Positions 1,542 to 12,460 of a stretch of 64,000 nt of DNA are shown one piece after another. This DNA comes from Bacteroidota bacterium (GTDB lineage: Bacteria; Bacteroidota; Bacteroidia; UBA4408). The notes under the pieces are model-generated. The model was not told where the DNA came from and ran no database searches. It worked only from the letters and a program-made list of their open reading frames with translations. The stretch is taken from contig JADKHO010000004.1 of the NCBI GenBank assembly GCA_016721765.1, forward strand, positions 288,088-352,087. Direction: 5' to 3'. Every line of letters begins with the position of its first letter. Within the stretch, counting starts at the first letter, position 1. The position numbers and the translations under genes are program-made.

Positions 1542-3068
1542 TTAATCGATTGTCAAAATATCATATCGTTCACTTTTTCCTTTGATCATTTTTAAGTATA
1601 GTCCGTTTTCCTTGTCTTTCATAGCGCTGGGTGATTGTGCAATGTAAAACCAATCAATATCCGGAGCTTCAATTTTATACCTTTTCATTTCACCAGATGA
1701 GGAAATCTCGAGTGCAGCAATTACAGATCCTCTGTGATTATAGATCATATCGTACTTTTCATGGTCATACGCGGGAATTGCATTTCCGGCTTCCTGCATA
1801 TTTTTGGGATGCTCCAGGTAGAAGAGGTAAATCTTATTATCGTGGACTATTTTATTAAATCCATTCAGTGTATTTCTTGTGTTTTTAGGACATGATTTTA
1901 TCCAATCCGCTTTGGTGTCGGGCTGAAATTTATAGATGATTAAATCACGTTCCTTAGTGTAAATAATGCCACCTTCCGCATATTGATAAATGGGCGTTGC
2001 GATCATGTAATAATCCTCGCCAATTTCGATGATATCCCTGATCTTAAAATTTTTGGCATTGGCACATTTCCAATTTGTTCCTTCTGCATAAGCAAGTTTT
2101 TCTTCTACAAGCTTTGGGAAATAGGTGAATTCCTTTGCTACAAGGCTGGATTGGGCATTTATGGTAACAAAAAATGCACCTGTTCTTGGTTCCTCCTCAC
2201 TTTTCTTTATCCTGTAATCTTTGAAAATTCCTGCAAAGGTTATGTTTCCATTTAAGGCATCATGGGTTTGGATTTCATCGATATACCATTTGGGACTAGT
2301 TGCAAGGTTAATGAAAGTTGGAGTATTTGTATCGTTAAAAATTGCAAGAGCGAAGGACCAGCTAGCATCGTTCTCAGTGTTCAGGTAGCGGACCAAGTAG
2401 GTAATTCTGCCAGTGTTGTCAATGTTGAAATTAGAGTTAAAGGCTTCACTTGACTTGTATCTCAAAGGAATTTTTATGGGATTACCTGATTTTTCCATAT
2501 TGATCGGGTTGTATAACTGGATTGACCCAATATAGGGTTTATCGTTAATAACAACAGGTGTTACAATTATCATTTTTGAATGGTCGGGACTAAGGCTCAT
2601 AGAAAAATTCCAGGTCCTCGATCCCATTTTGTCGGTTTTATATTGAGAAACCTCCGTCCATTCTTTCAGCACACTGCCGTCAGTGCCTATTGTTTTCATC
2701 ATCAGTTCAGCTTCCTGTTCCTGCCTGTTATAAATCTTAGCGAACAAATAAATTTTATTACCGGCAAAAAGAGGCGTAAATGGGTATTCATACAACTCAA
2801 TAATTGGGATGTGAAAATCAATGAATTTAGTATCCAGGATCCATAAAGTTTTGAGTGTACTTTTTTCCTGTTTGATAATAAAATAATTTAGGTGATTCAT
2901 TTCTCGAGTCCCGTAACTGTATATATACTTTTCATCTTCGTTAAATTTGAAGGATGCTTTGTGCTCGGGTTCAAGCGCCTGTTCGGTTCCTTTTGTAATA
3001 TGAAATTTCTGCGCATATGCAAAGTGAACAAGCAACAGCAGGATTGTCGTGTAACGGATTTTTTTCAT
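1542..3068 (-). CDS. Secreted hypothetical protein (N-terminal signal peptide)
   Basis: 508 aa ORF with signal peptide MKKIRYTTILLLLVHFAYAQ. No recognisable catalytic motif. Confidence 0.5.
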   Translation of the reverse strand: MKKIRYTTILLLLVHFAYAQKFHITKGTEQALEPEHKASFKFNEDEKYIYSYGTREMNHLNYFIIKQEKSTLKTLWILDTKFIDFHIPIIELYEYPFTPLFAGNKIYLFAKIYNRQEQEAELMMKTIGTDGSVLKEWTEVSQYKTDKMGSRTWNFSMSLSPDHSKMIIVTPVVINDKPYIGSIQLYNPINMEKSGNPIKIPLRYKSSEAFNSNFNIDNTGRITYLVRYLNTENDASWSFALAIFNDTNTPTFINLATSPKWYIDEIQTHDALNGNITFAGIFKDYRIKKSEEEPRTGAFFVTINAQSSLVAKEFTYFPKLVEEKLAYAEGTNWKCANAKNFKIRDIIEIGEDYYMIATPIYQYAEGGIIYTKERDLIIYKFQPDTKADWIKSCPKNTRNTLNGFNKIVHDNKIYLFYLEHPKNMQEAGNAIPAYDHEKYDMIYNHRGSVIAALEISSSGEMKRYKIEAPDIDWFYIAQSPSAMKDKENGLYLKMIKGKSERYDILTID

Positions 3069-3246
3069 GTTGAGTTATAAAAATCGTGTAAATCTAATTT
3101 TTTGCATCAATTTTCAATACGGTATTTCGACTAATGAGAGGCTGGATGAAACCGGATTAGTATTCTGCCAGGGTCACCCTTCTGCGCTTACGTTCAGCTC
3201 TTCGTTAAAATCGCTACTTTTGCCAAACCCTTATCCGGCTTGATAT

Positions 3247-4578
3247 ATGCAACAGGTAGTAACGTATCGGAACATTTGGAAGATATCTTATCCTATTATT
3301 TTAGGAGGCATTGCTCAAACAGTGGTGAATGTCACCGACACCGCTTTCTTGGGGCGAGTGAGTGAAGTGGCATTAGGCGCTTCGGCTATAGCCGGACTTT
3401 TTTACGTTACCGTATTTATGCTCGGATTAGGCTTCAGCATAGGCACTCAAATTATTGTTGCGCGCTATGATGGAGAAAAAAACTTTAAAGAAATTGGGAA
3501 AGTGCTCGATCATTCCATCTATTTTATGTTACCCCTTGCCGTTTTTTTATTTGTTTCTTTAAAAATGCTCAGCCCCTGGCTCCTCTCCTATTTTGTAAAA
3601 TCGCCCGAAGTTTTGGCTTCCAGTATAATTTATATTGATAATCGTTGCTGGGGCATTTTGTTTGCCTTTGTTGGATTGTGTATTCGTTCCTTTTACATCG
3701 GAATTTCTAACACACGAATAGTAATTTATTCTACCTTGATTTCTGCGATATCAAATTTTATCTTGAACTACATATTAGTATTTGGTAAATTTGGATTTGC
3801 ACCAATGGGTATTGCCGGGTCTGCGTTGGCAAGCAGCATATCGGAAGTTATATCACTTTTGTTTGTGATTGGCTATACTTATGTTACCATGAATTTGGAA
3901 AAATATAATTTATTTGGTTTTGCAAAATTTGACGGTGCACGCATCAAAAGCATTTTTACTGTGGCTGCACCATCTATGTTTCAAACTTTTTTCGCAGTTT
4001 GGAGTTGGTTTGTTTTCTTTTTGATTGTTGAAAAAATGGGCGAACGGCCACTCGCTATTTCCAACTTAATTCGAAACATGTATATGATTTTGATGATTCC
4101 TTTGGTTGGATTTAGTTCTGCAACCAATACCTTGGTAAGTAATTTAATTGGACAAGGTCGGCAATCGGAGGTTTTTCTCATGATTAAAAAAATTGCATTC
4201 TTATCCTTTGCATTTACCTTAGCACTTACTTTATTAAACTTGCTCAATCCGCGTATTGCACTTTCGGTTTTTACAAACGATAGCAATTTAATTGAAGCCA
4301 CACTCGGCTCACTTTATGTTATTTGTGGTTCCTTGCTTCTATTTTCGGTAACCGCTGTATTGTTGAGTTCCGTTTCAGGATCAGGAAATACAATGGCTTC
4401 TCTTATAATCGAAACGCTTACTATTGCTTTTTATTTATTGGCAACCTGGTTTGCTGTACAACTCATGCATTGGCCCATCGAATTGGTTTGGTGTGTGGAA
4501 TATGTTTATTTTGCCTTTATGGGGATGCTTTCCGTGTGGTATTTAAAAAAGAAATTGCAACAAAAATTATATGCGTAA
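3247..4578 (+). CDS. MATE family efflux transporter
   Basis: Twelve-TM protein of 443 aa with an N-terminus typical of NorM/MATE (WKISYPIILGGIAQTVVNVTDTAFLGRV). Confidence 0.85.
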   Translation: MQQVVTYRNIWKISYPIILGGIAQTVVNVTDTAFLGRVSEVALGASAIAGLFYVTVFMLGLGFSIGTQIIVARYDGEKNFKEIGKVLDHSIYFMLPLAVFLFVSLKMLSPWLLSYFVKSPEVLASSIIYIDNRCWGILFAFVGLCIRSFYIGISNTRIVIYSTLISAISNFILNYILVFGKFGFAPMGIAGSALASSISEVISLLFVIGYTYVTMNLEKYNLFGFAKFDGARIKSIFTVAAPSMFQTFFAVWSWFVFFLIVEKMGERPLAISNLIRNMYMILMIPLVGFSSATNTLVSNLIGQGRQSEVFLMIKKIAFLSFAFTLALTLLNLLNPRIALSVFTNDSNLIEATLGSLYVICGSLLLFSVTAVLLSSVSGSGNTMASLIIETLTIAFYLLATWFAVQLMHWPIELVWCVEYVYFAFMGMLSVWYLKKKLQQKLYA

Positions 4579-5827: not shown

Positions 5828-6109
5828 ATGAACAAACAAGAACTAATTGAAGCGATTGCTTCAGAATCAAAATTGACAAAAGCAGATTCTAAAAAAGCTT
5901 TAGACGCATTTATTAACCAAACATCTAAAGCTTTGAAAAAAGGCGACAGAGTTGCGTTAGTAGGATTCGGATCTTTCTCAGTTGCTAAAAGAGAAGCTCG
6001 TAAAGGAAGAAATCCACAAACCGGAAAAGAAATTAAAATTGCAGCTAAAAAAGTTTGCAAATTTAAAGCTGGTTCTGAATTAGCTGATTTAGTGAACAAA
6101 GGAAAATAA
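5828..6109 (+). CDS. hup: HU family DNA-binding protein
   Basis: 93 aa with the GFGSF..ARKGRNPQTGKEIKI HU/IHF signature. Confidence 0.9.
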   Translation: MNKQELIEAIASESKLTKADSKKALDAFINQTSKALKKGDRVALVGFGSFSVAKREARKGRNPQTGKEIKIAAKKVCKFKAGSELADLVNKGK

Positions 6110-6131
6110 TTCCTGTTTCACCAAACAAAAA

Positions 6132-6161
6132 AAATGTCTGCCTAATGGCGGACATTTTTTT
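6132..6161 (+). terminator. Rho-independent terminator after the HU gene
   Basis: Hairpin tgtctgcc-taat-ggcggaca followed by a run of 8 T. Confidence 0.6.
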
Positions 6162-6278
6162 TGCACTAAACTCTCTGAATCTTGAGCGTTCGAGGTATTT
6201 AAAACAAAATTATCTATTTGAAGTTTTTGCGCTTCTTTTTAAACCTAAATTGGAAACGCAGCAAGTCGGATGTTGGAG

Positions 6279-6854
6279 CTATACAAGAATTTTGAGAATC
6301 GAAAATGTTCCTATTGCAATGTATACAAATGCAAACATTCGCGCCACTTGTATTATGTTTAATTTCAGAAAATTCAAAACTTGGTTTCCCAGAATCATAT
6401 AAGTTAACATTACCAAAAGTGTTCCTAGCGCATTAAAAAAAAGAAAAGGAATAAATTGGGTATAGTTGCTAAGGGGATTAATTGCTATCCCAATCACCAT
6501 CCAAAAAGGAATTTGTTGGGGATGAAAAACAATACTGATCAATCCCCTTTTTAACGTGTTTTTTGAGAATTTTTGCTCCTCCTTTTTATTGTCAAAAAGC
6601 ACCCATACACCCATTACTATCAAGAGAATAAAGGATACAACCTGAAAAACAGAAAAGGTGGATTGATGCTTTTTAAGAGCTTCAATAAAAAGAAGCGTAC
6701 CGCCACAATATAAACTTTCAAACACCAAAATAAGTAACAGCACCCAAAGTAAAGCAACGTATCTTCTGCTTCGGTACAAATCCATAACCATTAGGTTTAT
6801 GTTTCCGGGAAATAAATACCCGTAAAAGCCAATAAATAAAGCTGTGAGCATCAT
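6279..6854 (-). CDS. LysE/RhtB-type small-molecule exporter (putative)
   Basis: 191 aa with about 6 TM segments and an N-terminal PGxN motif (YLFPGNINLMV). Its start overlaps the stop of the upstream ATP-grasp gene. Confidence 0.45.
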   Translation of the reverse strand: MMLTALFIGFYGYLFPGNINLMVMDLYRSRRYVALLWVLLLILVFESLYCGGTLLFIEALKKHQSTFSVFQVVSFILLIVMGVWVLFDNKKEEQKFSKNTLKRGLISIVFHPQQIPFWMVIGIAINPLSNYTQFIPFLFFNALGTLLVMLTYMILGNQVLNFLKLNIIQVARMFAFVYIAIGTFSILKILV

Positions 6855-7885
6855 GTTGTAAAATAGTTGAGTTTATAATTTCGCTCTTCCATTCTCGTGC
6901 TTTTAAAACCTTCGAAACTCATATATTCCACGCCTCTTTCACGGTTTTCTCTTGCGGCATCAAACATCATTTTATAATGCTGTGCAATAACTTTTTGTGC
7001 TTTGAAAAAAGAAAATGAAGGATCGTAAATATGTGCCGGTTCAGCGCCAGCTCCATTCAATTCTAGAATTGAAATGTTTGTCCCATTTCTCAAATCGGCA
7101 AATGACGGGCATCTTAAATCAAAACGCCCAAAATAAAAACCATTAATTGATTTACTTATTTTGTCAAAGCTCTCTGTTAAAGTCGCATCAATAAAATGAT
7201 TGTAATTCACAAACATTGCACCAAGCACATGATTGCCATAAGGTACCAAAACCAATTCTTCGTTGCTTTCTAATATGCAGTTGAAATCAATCTCCGGATT
7301 TTGTTGTAGCCTTTTATATTGTAAGTAAGCCCTGTCATTTTTTAAAATCAATTCACGAACACTGGCTTTACCGTCGCCCACTACAGATAGCAATTTTTTT
7401 AATGTGAGTGAGCTAATAATTCCCTTGCTACTGGATGGATTTCGGTAATAAAAAAGGCTGAATTCCAGCGGGGCATCAACATAAGATTGAATTATGAATT
7501 CTTTTTGGGTTTGATTCCGATACGCTCGAAGTTCAGACTTTGAGTTTAATTTTCGAACTCCCCAGCCTCTCTCTCCTCTATTTGGTTTAGCAATTAAAGG
7601 AAAGTTCATTGCTGCTGATTGAAGGTTTCTTTCAATTTTTTCTACCGTATCATTTTCACACACAAGGAGCGTGGATGGCAAGTATTGCAGGGGAATTAAT
7701 TGGAATATTTTCCACTTACTTTCAAAAAACATTCCGCCCGTTTCAATGGATGGATTAGAAGCGGAGAAAAAGAAAAATGACTTGGCTCTTCCAGCTAAAT
7801 AAAAATAATAAAAGCTAACAGGTAAATAAACAAGCCACATGGGCCAGTATTCCCAACTAAAAAGTTTAATTAAAAATCTTCTCAT
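6851..7885 (-). CDS. ATP-grasp domain protein (putative amino-acid/peptide ligase)
   Basis: Conserved Flavobacteriia-type N-terminus (WEYWPMW..YYFYLA..FFFFSASNPSIETGGM) and a C-terminal ATP-grasp-like region (ILELNGAGAEPAHIYDP). Has ATGA overlaps with both neighbours. Confidence 0.55.
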   Translation of the reverse strand: MRRFLIKLFSWEYWPMWLVYLPVSFYYFYLAGRAKSFFFFSASNPSIETGGMFFESKWKIFQLIPLQYLPSTLLVCENDTVEKIERNLQSAAMNFPLIAKPNRGERGWGVRKLNSKSELRAYRNQTQKEFIIQSYVDAPLEFSLFYYRNPSSSKGIISSLTLKKLLSVVGDGKASVRELILKNDRAYLQYKRLQQNPEIDFNCILESNEELVLVPYGNHVLGAMFVNYNHFIDATLTESFDKISKSINGFYFGRFDLRCPSFADLRNGTNISILELNGAGAEPAHIYDPSFSFFKAQKVIAQHYKMMFDAARENRERGVEYMSFEGFKSTRMEERNYKLNYFTT

Positions 7886-8646
7886 AATAATTTCGTGTTT
7901 GACGGATAATCAGGTGGAAGCGGACAATCTGTGGATTTTGCTAACAGTTTAATTACTTTTTGATGGTGTGTATATTTTTGTAAATCAAAATAATCAAAAG
8001 TTGCAAATTCACTTTGAGGTAACTCAATAAAGGAATAGCTCAATGTTTTCACCTTTTCATTCCGATTCATAATAAATCCATTTTCCATTTCTGGAAAAGA
8101 TTTAAAAAATTTCAACAAAGTCAATTTATCAATGGGCGGTTCCATTGCAATCCAGTTTTGAAAGAGGCTGCTTCGTTTGTCACGAAATTCAGTTGAATAT
8201 AATGTGGAAGAGGACCAAATTTGAGGTATCGTTTTATCAATATGCGTACGTTGTTTCTGAGTTCCATCCCATTGCAATTCAAATAAAGACTCATCACTCC
8301 AAACAACTAAAGTAAAGGGTTCAACTCCTTCAAGATTCATCAAACTCCAGTCAACAATGGGCAAATCAGATGCAAGTAAATCGTTTACAATCAGGCCTCT
8401 GCTTTTAAGGTAATTATCCTTTTGAAGATGCTTTTCTTTCGCACCGTTCAATAAGATGATTACATTTCTGAATTCATTTATTCCTACCCAGGTTCCGCCT
8501 TTTGAAGCATCTTTGGGCGACAATTGATTGATATTATTTGTGCGGTAAATTTCAGGAGCAAGCGCTGCAGGTCTCATCGGACTTTCGTCCCTTAAGGATG
8601 CAAAATGGCGGTTTGATGTTCCTGGTATATATACTACTGTGCACAT
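7882..8646 (-). CDS. NRDE family protein (DUF833, Ntn-hydrolase-like, N-terminal Cys)
   Basis: Begins MCTVVYIPG, typical of the NRDE family. 254 aa. Confidence 0.55.
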   Translation of the reverse strand: MCTVVYIPGTSNRHFASLRDESPMRPAALAPEIYRTNNINQLSPKDASKGGTWVGINEFRNVIILLNGAKEKHLQKDNYLKSRGLIVNDLLASDLPIVDWSLMNLEGVEPFTLVVWSDESLFELQWDGTQKQRTHIDKTIPQIWSSSTLYSTEFRDKRSSLFQNWIAMEPPIDKLTLLKFFKSFPEMENGFIMNRNEKVKTLSYSFIELPQSEFATFDYFDLQKYTHHQKVIKLLAKSTDCPLPPDYPSNTKLL

Positions 8647-8702: not shown

Positions 8703-9209
8703 TTAGGATGCATTACTTAAAGTTGCTTTATATTTTAAAGTAGAATAAGCCATTCCAAAATCTTCATTCACTATGCTTAACTGCATTTCAACTAAGGCAA
8801 CTTTTATAAGTGCAAGATGATGAATAGTGTGCTCAGTATTGTATACAATTTCTCTAAAATATGTAGTACTTACACCTGTCAGTGCATGCTCTTTTGTTTC
8901 ATCTGTTAGTAAGGTTAGTATTCGGTCAGGGGCTTTCATCGCAGTTATGAGGTTTAGAATTAATGCCTGAGCACTTACTTTCTTGTTTTGTAATTCCAGG
9001 TTTCGCTTTCTGTTTACGTAATCCACAATACCTGTTTCGTTGCCCGCTATGGCACATTCCAGCAATTCGAGAATATGACGTGTATGGCCACCAATGCTTG
9101 CGTTTCCTAAGTGAAGCACTGAATATTGGTATTGCTCATCCGTTAAAGAAGCAAGTAATTCACTTAAGTAATTTAATTGTTGCTCTAGCTGAATAAAAAG
9201 TCTGTTCAT
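8703..9209 (-). CDS. DinB/YfiT-like metal-dependent hydrolase family protein
   Basis: 168 aa with an HTRHILE..H..H pattern characteristic of DinB_2 four-helix bundles. Confidence 0.5.
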   Translation of the reverse strand: MNRLFIQLEQQLNYLSELLASLTDEQYQYSVLHLGNASIGGHTRHILELLECAIAGNETGIVDYVNRKRNLELQNKKVSAQALILNLITAMKAPDRILTLLTDETKEHALTGVSTTYFREIVYNTEHTIHHLALIKVALVEMQLSIVNEDFGMAYSTLKYKATLSNAS

Positions 9210-9245: not shown

Positions 9246-9647
9246 TTAATTCCGTTTTAACACTTTTTGAAATAATTCAATTCCTTGTTTTCGATGCAAA
9301 ATACAAACACTACTGCAACATAAAAATACCGTGATGGCAAGAACGAATAATTGCCCACCATCTCCTTTCGATTCAATGCCTATGACAGTTAAATGCGAGA
9401 GCATTGCACCTACCATTAATCCAACACCCATTATCGCTCCGATAAAAACAGTTGGGGGAACCAGCAATAAAATACTGCAAGCTAGCTCGAGCACACCTGT
9501 TCCGATGCGTCCCCATGGCTCGACACCTAATTTAGTAAATAGTTGCACCGATTCAGGATGGGCTGAGAATTTAAAATACAAGGTTTGCAATAATATCAGT
9601 GCTGACACAATGCGTAGTATCCAAGAAAGTAGTTGTAATAGTTTCAT
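9246..9647 (-). CDS. DoxX family membrane protein
   Basis: 133 aa with 4 TM segments and a DoxX-like layout (LRIVSALILLQTLYFKFS...). Confidence 0.7.
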   Translation of the reverse strand: MKLLQLLSWILRIVSALILLQTLYFKFSAHPESVQLFTKLGVEPWGRIGTGVLELACSILLLVPPTVFIGAIMGVGLMVGAMLSHLTVIGIESKGDGGQLFVLAITVFLCCSSVCILHRKQGIELFQKVLKRN

Positions 9648-9658
9648 TTTTTGAAAAA

Positions 9659-10120
9659 TTAATTGTGAAAAATTTTAATCCAGTTTTTATCTGCTTGCGA
9701 TTTTAAATTGGCTTCGTCCTCATTCCATTTTGGAAGTGTATTGTTAAAAAAGGAATGATAGAACAAATAAAGCTTACCTCCTTGAATTTTAAATGTTTCC
9801 GGATCAATTTCCACTTTCTCACTGGTAGCACCCATGGCATAAGCGCACCAGCCTCCAAATTGAGGTTCAAATTTTTTAGGGTCCTTCAAAAATAACTCCT
9901 TATTAGCTTGTGATGAAAAATAATAGGTAACTCCCTCCATAGTAGTTGAGAATTGCTTAGAACCGGGAACGGCTTTATACTTTGTAAAATAGGCAACCGG
10001 ATCATATCCTTGAATCGCCAGTGTGTTAAGTAAGTTAAAATGCTTTGTTCGTAAAGCATTTTGCGCATGCATTCCGGTAGTTAAAAAAAGACCGATAAAA
10101 AGAAGCTTTAATAATTTCAT
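9659..10120 (-). CDS. Secreted YHS-domain protein
   Basis: Signal peptide plus a GYDPVAYF motif (YHS/TRASH metal-binding domain). Confidence 0.65.
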   Translation of the reverse strand: MKLLKLLFIGLFLTTGMHAQNALRTKHFNLLNTLAIQGYDPVAYFTKYKAVPGSKQFSTTMEGVTYYFSSQANKELFLKDPKKFEPQFGGWCAYAMGATSEKVEIDPETFKIQGGKLYLFYHSFFNNTLPKWNEDEANLKSQADKNWIKIFHN

Positions 10121-10239: not shown

Positions 10240-10977
10240 CTATCTATACGGATTAAAACTGAATCCAATCATAAGCATCAGTGCTTTATTTCGCCAACGA
10301 TTGTTGTTAAGTCGCAAGCTGTTGTCGGTGGTGTATTCGGTGAATAAAAAAGTTGGACCAAGCTTCACAGCAGTATGGGATGAAACCCAATAGCGAACAA
10401 ACAATTCAGAATTTAGACCACCCAAATCATTGTCGCTTACTAAAAGTAAATTCAACTGAGTGGGTTTAGCCTGCTGCAAACTAGAATTTATGCTGTCTCT
10501 AAAAGAGGTATATAAACCATCAACCGCTTTGCCCAAACCAATTCCAAACGCATCGATATTAAAACCCGCTTCCCATTTTTTTGAAAAGTTGTATTGTAGA
10601 TTAATACTGATGTTTAGCAGATTATTATTTGCACTGCTTACAAAAAAAGTATCCACATTTTCAGTATATATTTTGGTAAATAAAACCTGTAGGCCGGTTT
10701 GCTTTGAGGTCAGAATTGCCGGCGCGGTAACATAATTAATATCCTTGCCCTTTTGGGAAGTAAAGCGCAAACCATATCCGGCTCCAACCTTTTTGTTTTT
10801 TGTAAGAGAATGGATATGTACCCAGGATAATGCGGCGCCATACTGCGAATTTCCTGCAAAAACAGCCAACTCATAGTTATTATTCTTTCGGTACACTTTG
10901 GTTTCAGGTTCTTGCGCACAAACAAAATTTGCAAGCAACAATCCAACAAAATAGAATAAGGCTTTTGAGAGATACAT
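10240..10977 (-). CDS. Putative outer-membrane beta-barrel protein
   Basis: Signal peptide, alternating hydrophobic beta-strand pattern, and a C-terminal aromatic residue (..FSFNPYR). Confidence 0.4.
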   Translation of the reverse strand: MYLSKALFYFVGLLLANFVCAQEPETKVYRKNNNYELAVFAGNSQYGAALSWVHIHSLTKNKKVGAGYGLRFTSQKGKDINYVTAPAILTSKQTGLQVLFTKIYTENVDTFFVSSANNNLLNISINLQYNFSKKWEAGFNIDAFGIGLGKAVDGLYTSFRDSINSSLQQAKPTQLNLLLVSDNDLGGLNSELFVRYWVSSHTAVKLGPTFLFTEYTTDNSLRLNNNRWRNKALMLMIGFSFNPYR

Positions 10978-11062: not shown

Positions 11063-11917
11063 CTAACTTAATTCTTTAGAAGCTTTTTTGACTTCAGAAG
11101 GATTTTGTGAGGTACATTTTTTAAAGAATTTGCTAAAATGTGAGCCATCTTCAAAGCCGAGTTCATCACTTATTTCCTTTACAGATTTTTCGGTGTAATA
11201 AAATAATCTTTTGGCTTCGGTAATAATTCTTTGTTGGATAATTTGAGAAGGGCTCTTTTTGCTGTAAAGCGAAAAATAGTTGGAGATTGTTTTAGGAGAT
11301 TTATGGAGCAAAGAAGCATAAAAAGAAACTTGATGTTCTTTACGGAAATGAATTTCCACAAGTAAGTTGAACTGCCGAATAAGGTTAAATTTCTCTTCCA
11401 CAACCTCTTCCGTACCCAAATATTGCTTCTTTGCTAAACGGGTAATTTGAATGATGAGCCTTACCAAAAGCATCCTTAACATCTCCCCTTTAATTTCTTC
11501 ATCTGAATTATATTCCTCTTCAAACAACTCCAGCAATTTTTTCATTTTTGCTTGTTGTTCCTCGTCCAATGCAACAAACATGGTAGGAGAAGGACCAAAA
11601 AATATAAATCCTACACAACCCACTTCAGCATCGTGATTCACAATACAATAAAACTCTCTATTAAACTGCCAAGCGATAATGCTTTCAGCTTGTTCAAAGC
11701 TAAAAGATTGATTGTGCATAATTGGCAAAATTGAATTGGATTTAAACAAGTACTGAACCTCATCAATAGTAACAACTTGATTGGGGCCTGTATTCCAAGC
11801 AATAGTGTGGGTATTAAAGCCATTTTTTTGCTCGTAGAAGTTTTGATTTAAGTCTGGATTTCCCTTTATCAAAATTAACTTACCTAACCCATCCTTATGC
11901 GTAAAATTGAATTTCAT
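11063..11917 (-). CDS. AraC family transcriptional regulator
   Basis: C-terminal AraC HTH (ISDELGFEDGSHFSKFFKK). Confidence 0.75.
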   Translation of the reverse strand: MKFNFTHKDGLGKLILIKGNPDLNQNFYEQKNGFNTHTIAWNTGPNQVVTIDEVQYLFKSNSILPIMHNQSFSFEQAESIIAWQFNREFYCIVNHDAEVGCVGFIFFGPSPTMFVALDEEQQAKMKKLLELFEEEYNSDEEIKGEMLRMLLVRLIIQITRLAKKQYLGTEEVVEEKFNLIRQFNLLVEIHFRKEHQVSFYASLLHKSPKTISNYFSLYSKKSPSQIIQQRIITEAKRLFYYTEKSVKEISDELGFEDGSHFSKFFKKCTSQNPSEVKKASKELS

Positions 11918-12223
11918 AATCTTTGCTTTTCACAAATATAAAGATTGCAAACGTTAAGCCTTACAAATACGATCTCAAAACTGAGATCAATAAAAGGTGT
12001 GGTTCTTCCATTATTTAGGAGACACCTTCTTTATACATTATTTACTATTAAAGCGGTAGGTAATGCCGAAAAGTTAAATCGTGAAGTAGGAAAGAGCGAG
12101 GCACCATTTTAGTCGCATCGGCTGCAAGGTGCAATTTCACTAAGTTAAATTAGCGTATTTCTAAAAGGGCTATATTTTCTTTATCTCCCATCTTTCTGAT
12201 TCGGAGAATAAAATGCTCCACTT

Positions 12224-12258
12224 ATCCAAAAAAAACAAAACCCCGCTATTAGCGGGGT
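12224..12258 (-). terminator. Terminator downstream of tRNA-Ser (minus strand)
   Basis: Perfect hairpin ccccgct-att-agcgggg, followed on the minus strand by a T-run (A-run on plus). Confidence 0.55.
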
Positions 12259-12270
12259 TACTTGTTAGAG

Positions 12271-12355
12271 CGGAGAAAGAGGGATTCGAACCCCCGGAGG
12301 TATGACCCTCAACAGTTTTCAAGACTGCCGCAATCGACCACTCTGCCATTTCTCC
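12271..12355 (-). tRNA. tRNA-Ser (anticodon TGA)
   Basis: The reverse complement folds as GGAGAAA acceptor stem, GCAGAGTGGTCGA D-arm, CAGT-CTTGAAA-ACTG anticodon arm (TGA), a long variable arm and a GGTTCGAATCC T-loop. Confidence 0.85.
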
Positions 12356-12460
12356 GAGCGCGAAATTATAAAAAAAACTCACGCGCCCTAAAAAAAAATC
12401 AAATTCCCCAATTCTTGGTATTGATAGCCGCTTTATGTAATTTAGCATCAAATTTTTAGC

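Follow-up and report, generated by a model that had tools for sequence, protein, structure and literature searches.

What is made and moved by three overlapping genes that join a relative of human TANGO2 to a ligase and a small membrane protein? The genes lie in a 64,000-nucleotide stretch of DNA from a Bacteroidota bacterium (Bacteroidia, UBA4408; GenBank assembly GCA_016721765.1, contig JADKHO010000004.1, positions 288,088 to 352,087 of the forward strand), the whole of which is called the window here and numbered from its first letter. Together they make up the catalytic and translocating core of an inner-membrane-associated module that is conserved. Its ATP-grasp-fold ligase adjoins, or is fused to, a cysteine N-terminal nucleophile (Cys-Ntn) enzyme of the NRDE family and a membrane domain of the LysE or DedA/VTT type, often with an α/β-hydrolase as well. 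At the membrane surface the ligase would activate a carboxylate and turn it into an amide, and we tentatively favor, at somewhat less than an even chance, a module that amidates or peptide-extends the head group of an aminolipid and then flips the product across the membrane. The three genes are:

7882..8646, minus strand: NRDE/TANGO2-family gene (254 amino acids), a predicted cysteine Ntn amidohydrolase or acyltransferase with the 'LRDE' variant of the family motif
6851..7885, minus strand: ATP-grasp-fold ligase gene (344 amino acids), of an uncharacterised family; hub of the module
6279..6854, minus strand: divergent LysE-superfamily membrane protein gene (191 amino acids), about six helices; predicted translocator

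Three minus-strand open reading frames (ORFs) at 8646>7882, 7885>6851, and 6854>6279 had been proposed in a sequence-only reading of the window. The coordinates match exactly, and the ATGA start/stop overlap described in that reading is present at both junctions: ...TTA TTATGAGA... at 7885-7882, between the NRDE and ligase genes, and ...ACA ACATGATG... at 6854-6851, between the ligase and LysE-like genes. The three are genuine genes rather than chance ORFs because each has hundreds to thousands of homologues. A collection clustered at 90% contains more than 3,700 homologues of the ligase, a search with the membrane protein gave 248 matches, and a profile search at 50% clustering returned 3,092 ligase representatives, 1,351 of them with E ≤ 1e-30.

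Gene fusions provide the strongest evidence of a functional link within the module, and they involve the ligase in five combinations:

NRDE::ligase: P0246, P0254, P0255, and P0271 (exhaustive profile search)
LysE::ligase: P0253, P0304, and P0362 (PF01810 up to 36.6 bits)
DedA/VTT::ligase: P0375 by Pfam; P0379, P0383, and P0387 by similarity
ligase::YqcI/YcgG: P0349, L087 385-2154 (C-terminal PF08892, 178 bits), adjoining a DUF1989 gene
ligase::MORN: P0276 (C-terminal MORN-variant repeats)

At least 120 protein clusters have NRDE on the N-terminal side of a fusion with the ligase; in a search with one such fusion, all 120 of the 120 matches listed are full-length fusions of 580-620 amino acids. 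Cultivated Pedobacter, Mucilaginibacter, Chitinophaga, and Puia carry this fusion, labelled by NCBI merely as 'NRDE family protein', and so does Siphonobacter. The LysE::ligase form occurs in Psychroserpens, and the DedA::ligase form in Leptospira, other Leptospiraceae, and many metagenomes, where an α/β-hydrolase is often fused too. All four NRDE::ligase fusions inspected begin MCTVT...SNRDE. The NRDE::ligase loci run in the order YHS, YHS, (outer-membrane protein), (CoaB-like), DoxX, DinB, NRDE::ligase, LysE.

Conservation of the gene neighborhood was assessed in 80 related loci taken from reference genomes by alignment of the ligase (Chitinophagaceae, Saprospiraceae, Cytophagales, Crocinitomicaceae, and others). 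Partners were counted by tblastn, and each denominator is the number of loci assessable for that partner:

NRDE, same strand, ≤3.5 kb upstream of the ligase: 56/62 loci (90%)
DinB-like gene with the ligase: 50/54 loci
DoxX gene with the ligase: 49/54 loci
Secreted YHS-domain protein with the ligase: 49/54 loci
LysE-like gene directly downstream of the ligase: 35/75 loci (47%)
Complete NRDE-ligase-LysE triad: 28/58 loci

The 4-base overlap between the ligase and LysE-like genes recurs, by ORF calling, in 24 of the 36 related loci that have a LysE-like gene. NRDE and the ligase mostly lie -13 to +60 bp apart, and many genera have them as a single ORF; these gaps are approximate because starts were called as the first ATG. 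The proposal that the three genes act together is borne out by their co-occurrence and by the fusion of each partner to the ligase elsewhere. The other point on which that proposal had been staked, the LysE likeness of the membrane protein, is upheld at the family level by its orthologues and fusions, although the window protein itself has no Pfam match. Less apt is the description of the locus as a three-gene operon: the triad is the distal part of a six-to-eight-gene cluster, and DinB, DoxX, and YHS (91-93% of loci) are linked to the ligase as tightly as NRDE is.

The ligase belongs to a new ATP-grasp family whose catalytic residues are intact. Its central and C-terminal domains have the ATP-grasp fold, the nearest folds being those of LysX/ArgX, CphA2, RimK, Ddl, and GshB, with about 205 of the 344 residues aligning structurally; GshB and GshAB are found among its fold and sequence matches. 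Residues K100, R254, D256, E275, and N277 are invariant in 24 sequences, and a GRxDxR...ExN motif is present in 74/79 and 71/73 homologues in two sets. The identification as ATP-grasp made from sequence alone therefore stands by fold and catalytic motif, whereas its Pfam support is weak. The match to the TTL model (23.5 bits; cut-off 20.1) is confined to 48 residues, the RimK model scores 13.9 bits, below its cut-off of 21, and all NCBIfam matches fall far under their cut-offs. The homologues have no precomputed Pfam domain, and no Pfam or NCBIfam model covers the family.

The canonical N-terminal (pre-ATP-grasp) substrate domain is absent from the ligase, and matches to known families start at residue 65-79. 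Residues 1-60 instead hold an aromatic-rich helix (16-34) and, after it, the invariant motif SFFFFSASNPSIETGGMFFESK, which reads SASNPSIETGG...ESK. A true transmembrane anchor was considered for the helix and rejected: its 19-residue mean hydropathy of about 1.0 is well under transmembrane grade, and in NRDE fusions it sits between two cytoplasmic domains. Both flanking domains must be cytoplasmic because Cys2 of NRDE needs removal of the initiator Met and the ligase needs ATP. A helix so placed is therefore probably an interfacial or structural element rather than a membrane span.

In these respects the family departs from the amide ligases RimK, LysX/ArgX, the cyanophycin synthetase G-domain, and GshB, which it otherwise resembles: it lacks their N-domain, having the helix and motif in its place, and fusions to LysE, DedA/VTT, NRDE, or α/β-hydrolase are unique to it within this comparison. 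A ligase is also paired with a hydrolase in the HmrA/LdmS system of S. aureus. There, however, the hydrolase is an M20 peptidase rather than a Cys-Ntn enzyme, and LdmS is soluble with a normal N-domain and has neither membrane-domain fusions nor DinB, DoxX, and YHS partners.

The assignment of the upstream gene to the NRDE family is upheld by a match to PF05742 above the gathering score (45.9 bits against 22.6; only residues 16-126 align), by a Met-Cys start, and by invariant Cys2, Arg, Asp, and Glu. In a Pfam scan at E up to 10 this was the sole match, and no GATase_2-type family appeared; the NRDE::ligase fusion proteins score 34-51 bits on the same model. Similarity in sequence to the human TANGO2 structures 9bwa/8sv7 is weak. 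Across 66 NRDE orthologues, Cys2, Arg19, Asp20, Glu21, Asn67, and Gly68 are 100% conserved, and Leu replaces human Asn25 ('LRDE') in 62 (94%); the MC...xRDE pattern is found in all 66 and in 29/38 sequences of a second set. The conserved residues align with human Cys2, Arg26, Asp27, Glu28, and Asn75. The counterparts of human Asn157 and Lys166 align unclearly, the alignment being only approximate beyond human residue 105.

These five human residues have been proposed, from a 2026 crystal structure, as the catalytic set of a cysteine Ntn-hydrolase (PMC13044924). From family membership and that structure, an αββα Ntn fold is predicted for the window protein. The nearest structural relatives of TANGO2 are N-acyl-amide enzymes, namely isopenicillin N acyltransferase, bile-salt hydrolase, acid ceramidase, and NAAA, and TANGO2 has been connected to acyl-CoA and lipid homeostasis (PMC13044924). 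Its function is disputed, with heme chaperone, acyl-CoA binder, and Cys-Ntn hydrolase all proposed (PMC13044924, PMC10470608), and, according to the mBio paper on Shewanella HtpA, no other bacterial TANGO2 homologue had been investigated (PMC10470608). The window protein shares with human TANGO2 (PDB 8sv7) and HtpA its PF05742 membership, Met-Cys start, R-D-E residues, and the equivalent of Asn75. Unlike both, members of its clade have Leu in place of Asn25 and are operon-coupled or fused to an ATP-grasp ligase, and the window cluster offers no heme or cytochrome context. No report of a TANGO2 homologue coupled or fused to an ATP-grasp ligase was found in the literature searched.

The third gene had been described as a LysE/RhtB-type amino-acid exporter. 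Divergent membership in the LysE superfamily is retained, whereas the exporter label exceeds the evidence and a DedA/VTT domain can take the protein's place. The window protein itself has no Pfam match, and none to LysE even at E up to 10. Among 28 members of its family, however, four match LysE (up to 31 bits; cut-off 25.6), ten MarC, one MntP, and one DsbD_2, all families of a single Pfam clan. The PF01810 matches of the orthologues P0193 (31.0 bits), P0221 (27.5 bits), and P0213 (26.6 bits) each extend over nearly the full length, and two LysE::ligase fusions reach 36.6 and 34.1 bits. FPGNINLM and HPQQIPFW motifs are conserved, and in an AlphaFold2 model (pLDDT 84) the helices break at both. 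The modelled helices (2-12/18-28, 32-61, 64-87, 100-109/114-125, and 131-190) agree with hydropathy peaks on about six, although the single long helix modelled for the C-terminal half makes a 3+3 topology only approximate. LysE/RhtB exporters and their superfamily likewise have about 190-200 amino acids and about six helices in two halves, with motifs at breaks of helices 1 and 4; CcdA and DsbD, in contrast, have paired cysteines that the window protein lacks. Because a DedA/VTT domain is interchangeable with the LysE-like protein in other lineages, the comparison suggests that the cargo need not be a free amino acid.

A hint of what the cargo might be comes from the DedA branch of the family. 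A further 80 loci, each with a full-length fusion at 32-47% identity, came from a metagenome scan with an alignment of DedA::ligase proteins. In this branch too the prevailing order is DinB > NRDE > ligase (DinB in 43, NRDE in 38, and DoxX in 17 of 85 loci). In 32/73 loci the ligase ORF is at least 780 amino acids long, which is read as including an α/β-hydrolase domain; one example was confirmed as an α/β-hydrolase::VTT::ATP-grasp triple fusion. Genes resembling OlsB (142 bits), OlsA (157 bits), or OlsF (416 bits) are present in 25/73 DedA::ligase loci; they are called aminolipid synthase-like here because all of these scores lie under the NCBIfam equivalog cut-offs. In the Leptospiraceae locus L086 the OlsB-like gene overlaps or abuts the ligase gene, and further along the operon are the orthologue (E = 3e-53) of the Bacteroidota α/β-hydrolase, a DoxX::cytochrome c fusion, and a COX1-like gene. 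An argument that NRDE is an N-acyltransferase because it is displaced by Acetyltransf_5 (OlsB-like) proteins was dropped, since both co-occur in many loci.

Beside the linkage of the genes into one unit, the evidence for the aminolipid proposal is of three kinds. Amide-ligase chemistry is indicated because the fold is near those of LysX/ArgX, CphA2, RimK, Ddl, and GshB and the GRxDxR...ExN motif is conserved. Action at the membrane surface is suggested because the canonical N-domain is missing and the helix in its place is not of transmembrane grade and, in the NRDE fusions, lies between two cytoplasmic domains. A lipid substrate is suggested because of the Ols-like genes and α/β-hydrolase domains of the DedA branch and because the relatives of TANGO2 are N-acyl-amide enzymes. 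On the cytoplasmic side of the membrane, the ligase would convert a carboxylate to an acyl-phosphate and join it to an amine. The likeliest carboxylate would be the free one on the head group of an N-acyl amino acid (an aminolipid). The head group of the product would be amidated or extended by a peptide, much as in taurine-amidated ornithine lipid or in the Gly-Ser and Gly-Ser-Orn lipoamino acids known from Chitinophaga and Sphingobacteriaceae. Passage across the inner membrane, either of the amphiphile or of the amine co-substrate, would fall to the LysE or DedA partner. More speculatively, NRDE would handle the N-acyl or head-group amide, either hydrolysing and remodelling it or transferring an acyl group from a thioester, while the α/β-hydrolase might remove an ester-linked fatty acid. 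Through DinB, DoxX, and YHS the module is probably tied to a redox or envelope-stress function that AraC or an extracytoplasmic function (ECF) sigma factor controls.

Such a ligase would fit gaps in described pathways. The transfer of taurine onto the carboxyl of ornithine lipid is ATP-dependent and lacks a known gene (PMC12971839). Gly-Ser and Gly-Ser-Orn lipoamino acids, which are extended at the carboxyl end, are core metabolites of Chitinophaga and are also found in one Sphingobacteriaceae strain, and no ligase has been proposed for them (PMC8433624). The taxa carrying the module overlap with the producers of Gly-Ser(-Orn) lipids (PMC8433624, PMC12971839), genes like those of the OlsBA and OlsF aminolipid pathways, to which GlsBA is comparable, flank the ligase in the DedA branch, and the making of amidated or peptide-type head groups is chemistry that fits an ATP-grasp enzyme. 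The described aminolipid pathways, however, contain no ATP-grasp, NRDE, DinB, or DoxX protein, and ATP-grasp enzymes are unmentioned in PMC12971839. A stronger form of the proposal is unlikely although worth stating: the module would be the missing ATP-dependent head-group ligase for Gly-Ser(-Orn) lipids, amidated ornithine lipids, or both, together with its dedicated flippase, and TANGO2/NRDE proteins would be true enzymes, making or breaking the N-acyl or head-group amides of membrane amphiphiles. If true, the protein whose mutation causes human TANGO2 deficiency would for the first time have a biochemical context, and the CoaB paralogues found near the ligase in some loci would hint at a pantothenate- or cysteine-linked substrate.

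Several observations weigh against an aminolipid substrate. No Ols/Gls-like gene was found by tblastn (0 matches) in the 64-kb window or in 84 Bacteroidota loci, and for the window's own clade the lipid link would have to be carried over from homologues at only 33-39% identity. DinB, DoxX, and YHS, the tightest partners in this clade, are left unexplained, as are the CoaB paralogues and a LysE::thioredoxin fusion. No Bacteroidales, which make Gly-Ser lipids, appear among the ligase matches listed, although no search was aimed at that order. The LysE-like gene is missing from about half of the loci, the NRDE step is speculative, and the substrates of all components are putative. DinB, DoxX, and YHS stand upstream of the triad in a cluster that runs AraC, outer-membrane protein, YHS, DoxX, DinB, NRDE, ligase, LysE and is closed by a hairpin:

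11063..11917, minus strand: AraC-family regulator at the head of the cluster (HTH_18, 67.8 bits)
10240..10977, minus strand: outer-membrane-protein-like gene of family f25, a variable member (245 amino acids; signal peptide, beta-rich; no Pfam match)
9659..10120, minus strand: secreted YHS-domain protein gene (153 amino acids; invariant Cys92; NF041384 YHS (seleno)protein, 135 bits; PF04945)
9246..9647, minus strand: DoxX-family inner-membrane protein gene (133 amino acids; PF13564, 41.1 bits)
8703..9209, minus strand: DinB-superfamily gene (168 amino acids), a putative metalloenzyme (DinB_2, 22.7 bits, just under the cut-off of 24.8)
6125..6164, no strand assigned: bidirectional intrinsic-terminator-like hairpin flanked by A8 and T8 runs (minimum free energy -20.8 kcal/mol, z = -4.46)

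The same-strand gaps upstream of NRDE are short (56 bp for DinB, 36 bp for DoxX, and 11 bp for YHS). DinB is the most persistent partner of the ligase, in the window clade as in the DedA branch, and stands directly before the fusion genes in L085, L088, and L089. Its residues H42, H45, H127, H130, H131, C52, R44, and E48 are at least 90% conserved; a sequence search of the protein against the PDB gave nothing meaningful. In the YHS protein the position to which the NCBIfam model owes the '(seleno)' in its name is Cys in 93/93 matches, with no TGA/selenocysteine forms; a selenoprotein was thereby ruled out, there being no in-frame TGA at the site. Many loci have a same-strand AraC gene upstream of YHS, and elsewhere an ECF sigma factor with a small Cys-rich protein is found there. 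Stand-alone CoaB-like genes (PF04127, 210 bits) or full CoaBC genes, with all CoaB motifs kept, are present in about 15% of loci at three positions: between NRDE and the ligase (L005, L024, L042, L052, L059), directly after the ligase (L001, L011, L025, L026, L043), and also at L081 6403-7071, L083 6365-7049, and L084 6367-7050. Mucilaginibacter encodes a LysE-like::thioredoxin protein of 365 amino acids (L083 9785-10882 and L084 9785-10882) downstream of the NRDE::ligase fusion; an extra hydrophobic segment leads into its C-terminal thioredoxin domain, which has a WCPTC motif and suggests a periplasmic thiol-redox partner.

These partners are better accommodated by a different product, a soluble cysteine-containing thiol or metallophore that would be made in the cytoplasm and exported by LysE or DedA to the periplasm to buffer metal or redox stress. 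We consider this rather unlikely, although it is the strongest rival to the aminolipid proposal. The ATP-grasp protein would be a GshB-like peptide ligase, the CoaB paralogue a cysteine ligase, NRDE a trimming amidohydrolase like EgtC or GGT, and DinB a thiol-activating metalloenzyme; YHS, DoxX, and thioredoxin-fold proteins would act as periplasmic partners, under ECF-sigma or AraC control. The constancy of DinB, DoxX, and YHS beside the ligase fits such a scheme, as does DinB directly upstream even in the minimal loci L085 and L088, the recruitment of CoaB-like genes with all motifs at three positions, the WCPTC-bearing LysE::thioredoxin protein, and the invariant Cys92 of YHS. The GshB and GshAB matches of the ligase agree with it as well, and so do recurrent neighbors of the TlpA-like, CMD/AhpD, DUF1223, and DM13 types and ECF sigma factors paired with anti-sigma proteins that are Cys-rich or of the NrsF kind. 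Taken together, DinB, CoaB, LysE::thioredoxin, the YHS cysteine, DoxX, and ECF sigma/NrsF are explained better by a thiol than by an aminolipid.

The thioredoxin fusion, however, occurs in one genus only, and CoaB in only about 15% of loci. The OlsB/OlsA/OlsF-like neighbors, the α/β-hydrolase fusions, and the DedA domain are left without explanation, and the LysE-like protein lacks the paired cysteines of CcdA/DsbD. We know of no thiol product of these taxa that needs such a pathway. Copper-responsive bufferin clusters have DoxX together with SigF-NrsF among their core features (PMC11626156, PMC12452194), but even there DoxX is dispensable and its role unknown (PMC11626156). Loci of the module share with bufferin-type clusters DoxX, an ECF sigma factor with an anti-sigma protein (NrsF in Leptospira), and a secreted Cys-containing protein of metal-binding type (PMC11626156, PMC12452194). 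In the window cluster, unlike bufferin clusters, the secreted protein is a YHS-domain protein, and a Pfam scan of the eight window-cluster proteins found no MNIO (DUF692), no DUF2063, and no Cys-rich precursor of the RiPP type (peptides made by the ribosome and modified after translation). Neither the aminolipid nor the thiol model covers every conserved partner. The make-and-export of a small amino-acid-derived molecule envisaged in the sequence-only reading is only one of two live readings, and an amphiphilic aminolipid is favored no less strongly by the surroundings of the gene in distant relatives.

Fusion to the ligase also raises the question of whether NRDE is a Cys-Ntn glutaminase like the corresponding domains of AsnB, GlmS, and PurF, from which ammonia or an amine would be channelled to the ATP-grasp domain, a role that could be combined with either an aminolipid or a thiol product. 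The fusions of 580-620 amino acids have the expected plan, with a Met-Cys N-terminus, an Ntn domain first, and an ATP-dependent synthetase second (separate genes in the window), and Cys2, Arg, Asp, and the Asn-Gly pair are invariant. Carbamoyl-phosphate synthetase shows that ATP-grasp domains can use ammonia derived from an amidotransferase. Such a role is nevertheless improbable. NRDE lacks a GATase_2-type Pfam match, and the published structure of TANGO2 resembles those Ntn enzymes that hydrolyse N-acyl amides or transfer acyl groups; its amphipathic cavity is very large, whereas a glutamine pocket is small (PMC13044924). NRDE is moreover missing in about 10% of window-clade loci and in about half of DedA-branch loci, and the ligase can therefore work without it.

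Poorer still are the prospects of a mercapturate-like detoxification, in which DinB would conjugate a thiol to an electrophile or quinone, NRDE would cleave the amide of the conjugate, LysE or DedA would export it, and the ligase would regenerate the thiol carrier. The order DinB > NRDE > ligase > exporter is conserved, DinB-fold S-transferases are paired with conjugate amidases and exporters in the mycothiol and bacillithiol systems, and the DoxX relatives MhqP and CatD belong to quinone-stress operons of Bacillus. But the ligase rather than DinB is the hub that is fused to transporter and NRDE, which is unexpected for a recycling enzyme; no conserved reductase or dioxygenase typical of quinone detoxification is present; and the aminolipid synthase-like neighbors are unexplained. 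That NRDE is a non-enzymatic heme-trafficking protein like HtpA, its adjacency to the ligase and LysE-like genes being biochemically meaningless, is scarcely credible: HtpA, the sole studied bacterial TANGO2 homologue, reportedly binds heme and promotes the maturation of cytochrome c (PMC10470608), and the distant operon L086 has its DoxX::cytochrome c and COX1-like genes, but the catalytic-type Cys2, Arg, Asp, Glu, and Asn-Gly residues are invariant, many genera have NRDE joined covalently to the ligase, the cluster contains no heme or cytochrome-maturation genes, heme binding by TANGO2 was found to be non-specific in the crystal study (PMC13044924), and most HtpA homologues could not replace HtpA (PMC10470608).

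The view that the triad is not a described pathway agrees with the literature searched on NRDE/TANGO2, ATP-grasp, DinB/DoxX/YHS, and gene neighborhoods, in which no description of the system was found (the 2009 survey of ATP-grasp amidoligases by Iyer et al. lay outside the comparison). The ligase family, its coupling to a TANGO2 homologue, and the conserved DinB/DoxX/YHS context are each undescribed in that literature. The system is not categorically new, because all of its components fall in known superfamilies with known chemistry. The family is nonetheless large (>3,000 representatives at 50% identity), is without a curated model, and has an unusual architecture, with no N-domain and with fusions to membrane translocators. 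It offers a concrete candidate for taurine transfer to ornithine lipid (PMC12971839) and for Gly-Ser(-Orn) head groups (PMC8433624). The NRDE::ligase fusion argues for an enzymatic role of the TANGO2 family on amide bonds, and its presence in the easily grown Pedobacter, Mucilaginibacter, and Chitinophaga opens the TANGO2 question to direct genetic and biochemical testing. Should a thiol be the product instead, Bacteroidota and Leptospira would prove to have a new low-molecular-weight thiol or metallophore system.

The remaining features of the window cluster and its relatives are more variable. Homologues of the outer-membrane-like family f25 were found in only three loci, and families f7 and f8 take similar places elsewhere. 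Accessory genes that recur in related loci include outer-membrane-protein-like families, a DM13 protein, a lipoprotein α/β-hydrolase, and CMD/AhpD, TlpA-like, and DUF1223 proteins. The YHS gene is often tandemly duplicated (e.g., L003, L007, L081-L084), the second copy having 32-35% identity. Between NRDE and the ligase, 15 loci (L004, L005, L007-L009, L012, L037, L038, L042, L058, L059, L061, and L062 among them) carry a gene of family f11, a 194-amino-acid multi-helix membrane protein with no Pfam match; it can co-occur with the LysE-like gene and is therefore no simple replacement for it. The recruitment of CoaB is noteworthy in view of human TANGO2 deficiency, which reportedly responds to vitamin B5 (as cited in PMC13044924). 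A small peptide or carrier ORF within the window cluster was considered as a ligase substrate and rejected, because the intergenic gaps, at only 11-119 bp, are too short for one.

The hairpin at 6125-6164 closes the unit after the LysE-like gene and is common to that gene and a convergent HU gene (5828-6109, plus strand). None of 200 shuffled sequences was as stable; a single stem mismatch hid the hairpin from a simple terminator scan. A scan for sigma-70 promoters showed no enrichment over shuffled sequences, with a model that is ill-suited to Bacteroidota promoters, and no riboswitch or other regulatory RNA was found in the cluster. The sole RNA found is a tRNA-Ser (anticodon TGA) at 12270-12355 on the minus strand, just upstream of the AraC gene, and an ORF listed at 12170-12451 is a spurious translation across it.

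Among the more distant loci, L115, L132, L138, L145, L152, and others of the DedA branch encode a recurrent pair near the cluster: a fusion of a ferric-reductase-type membrane domain with a Rieske [2Fe-2S] domain (g5), and an unannotated 262-amino-acid protein (g7). A secreted HExxH protein (g8) directly follows the ligase in about 12 DedA-branch loci. On a 326-kb replicon of Leptospira sp. GIMC2001, locus L088 carries an ECF sigma factor and an NrsF-type anti-sigma protein at 2442-3552, a few genes upstream of the series DinB > DedA::ligase > α/β-hydrolase, an arrangement that resembles SigF-NrsF control of metal stress.

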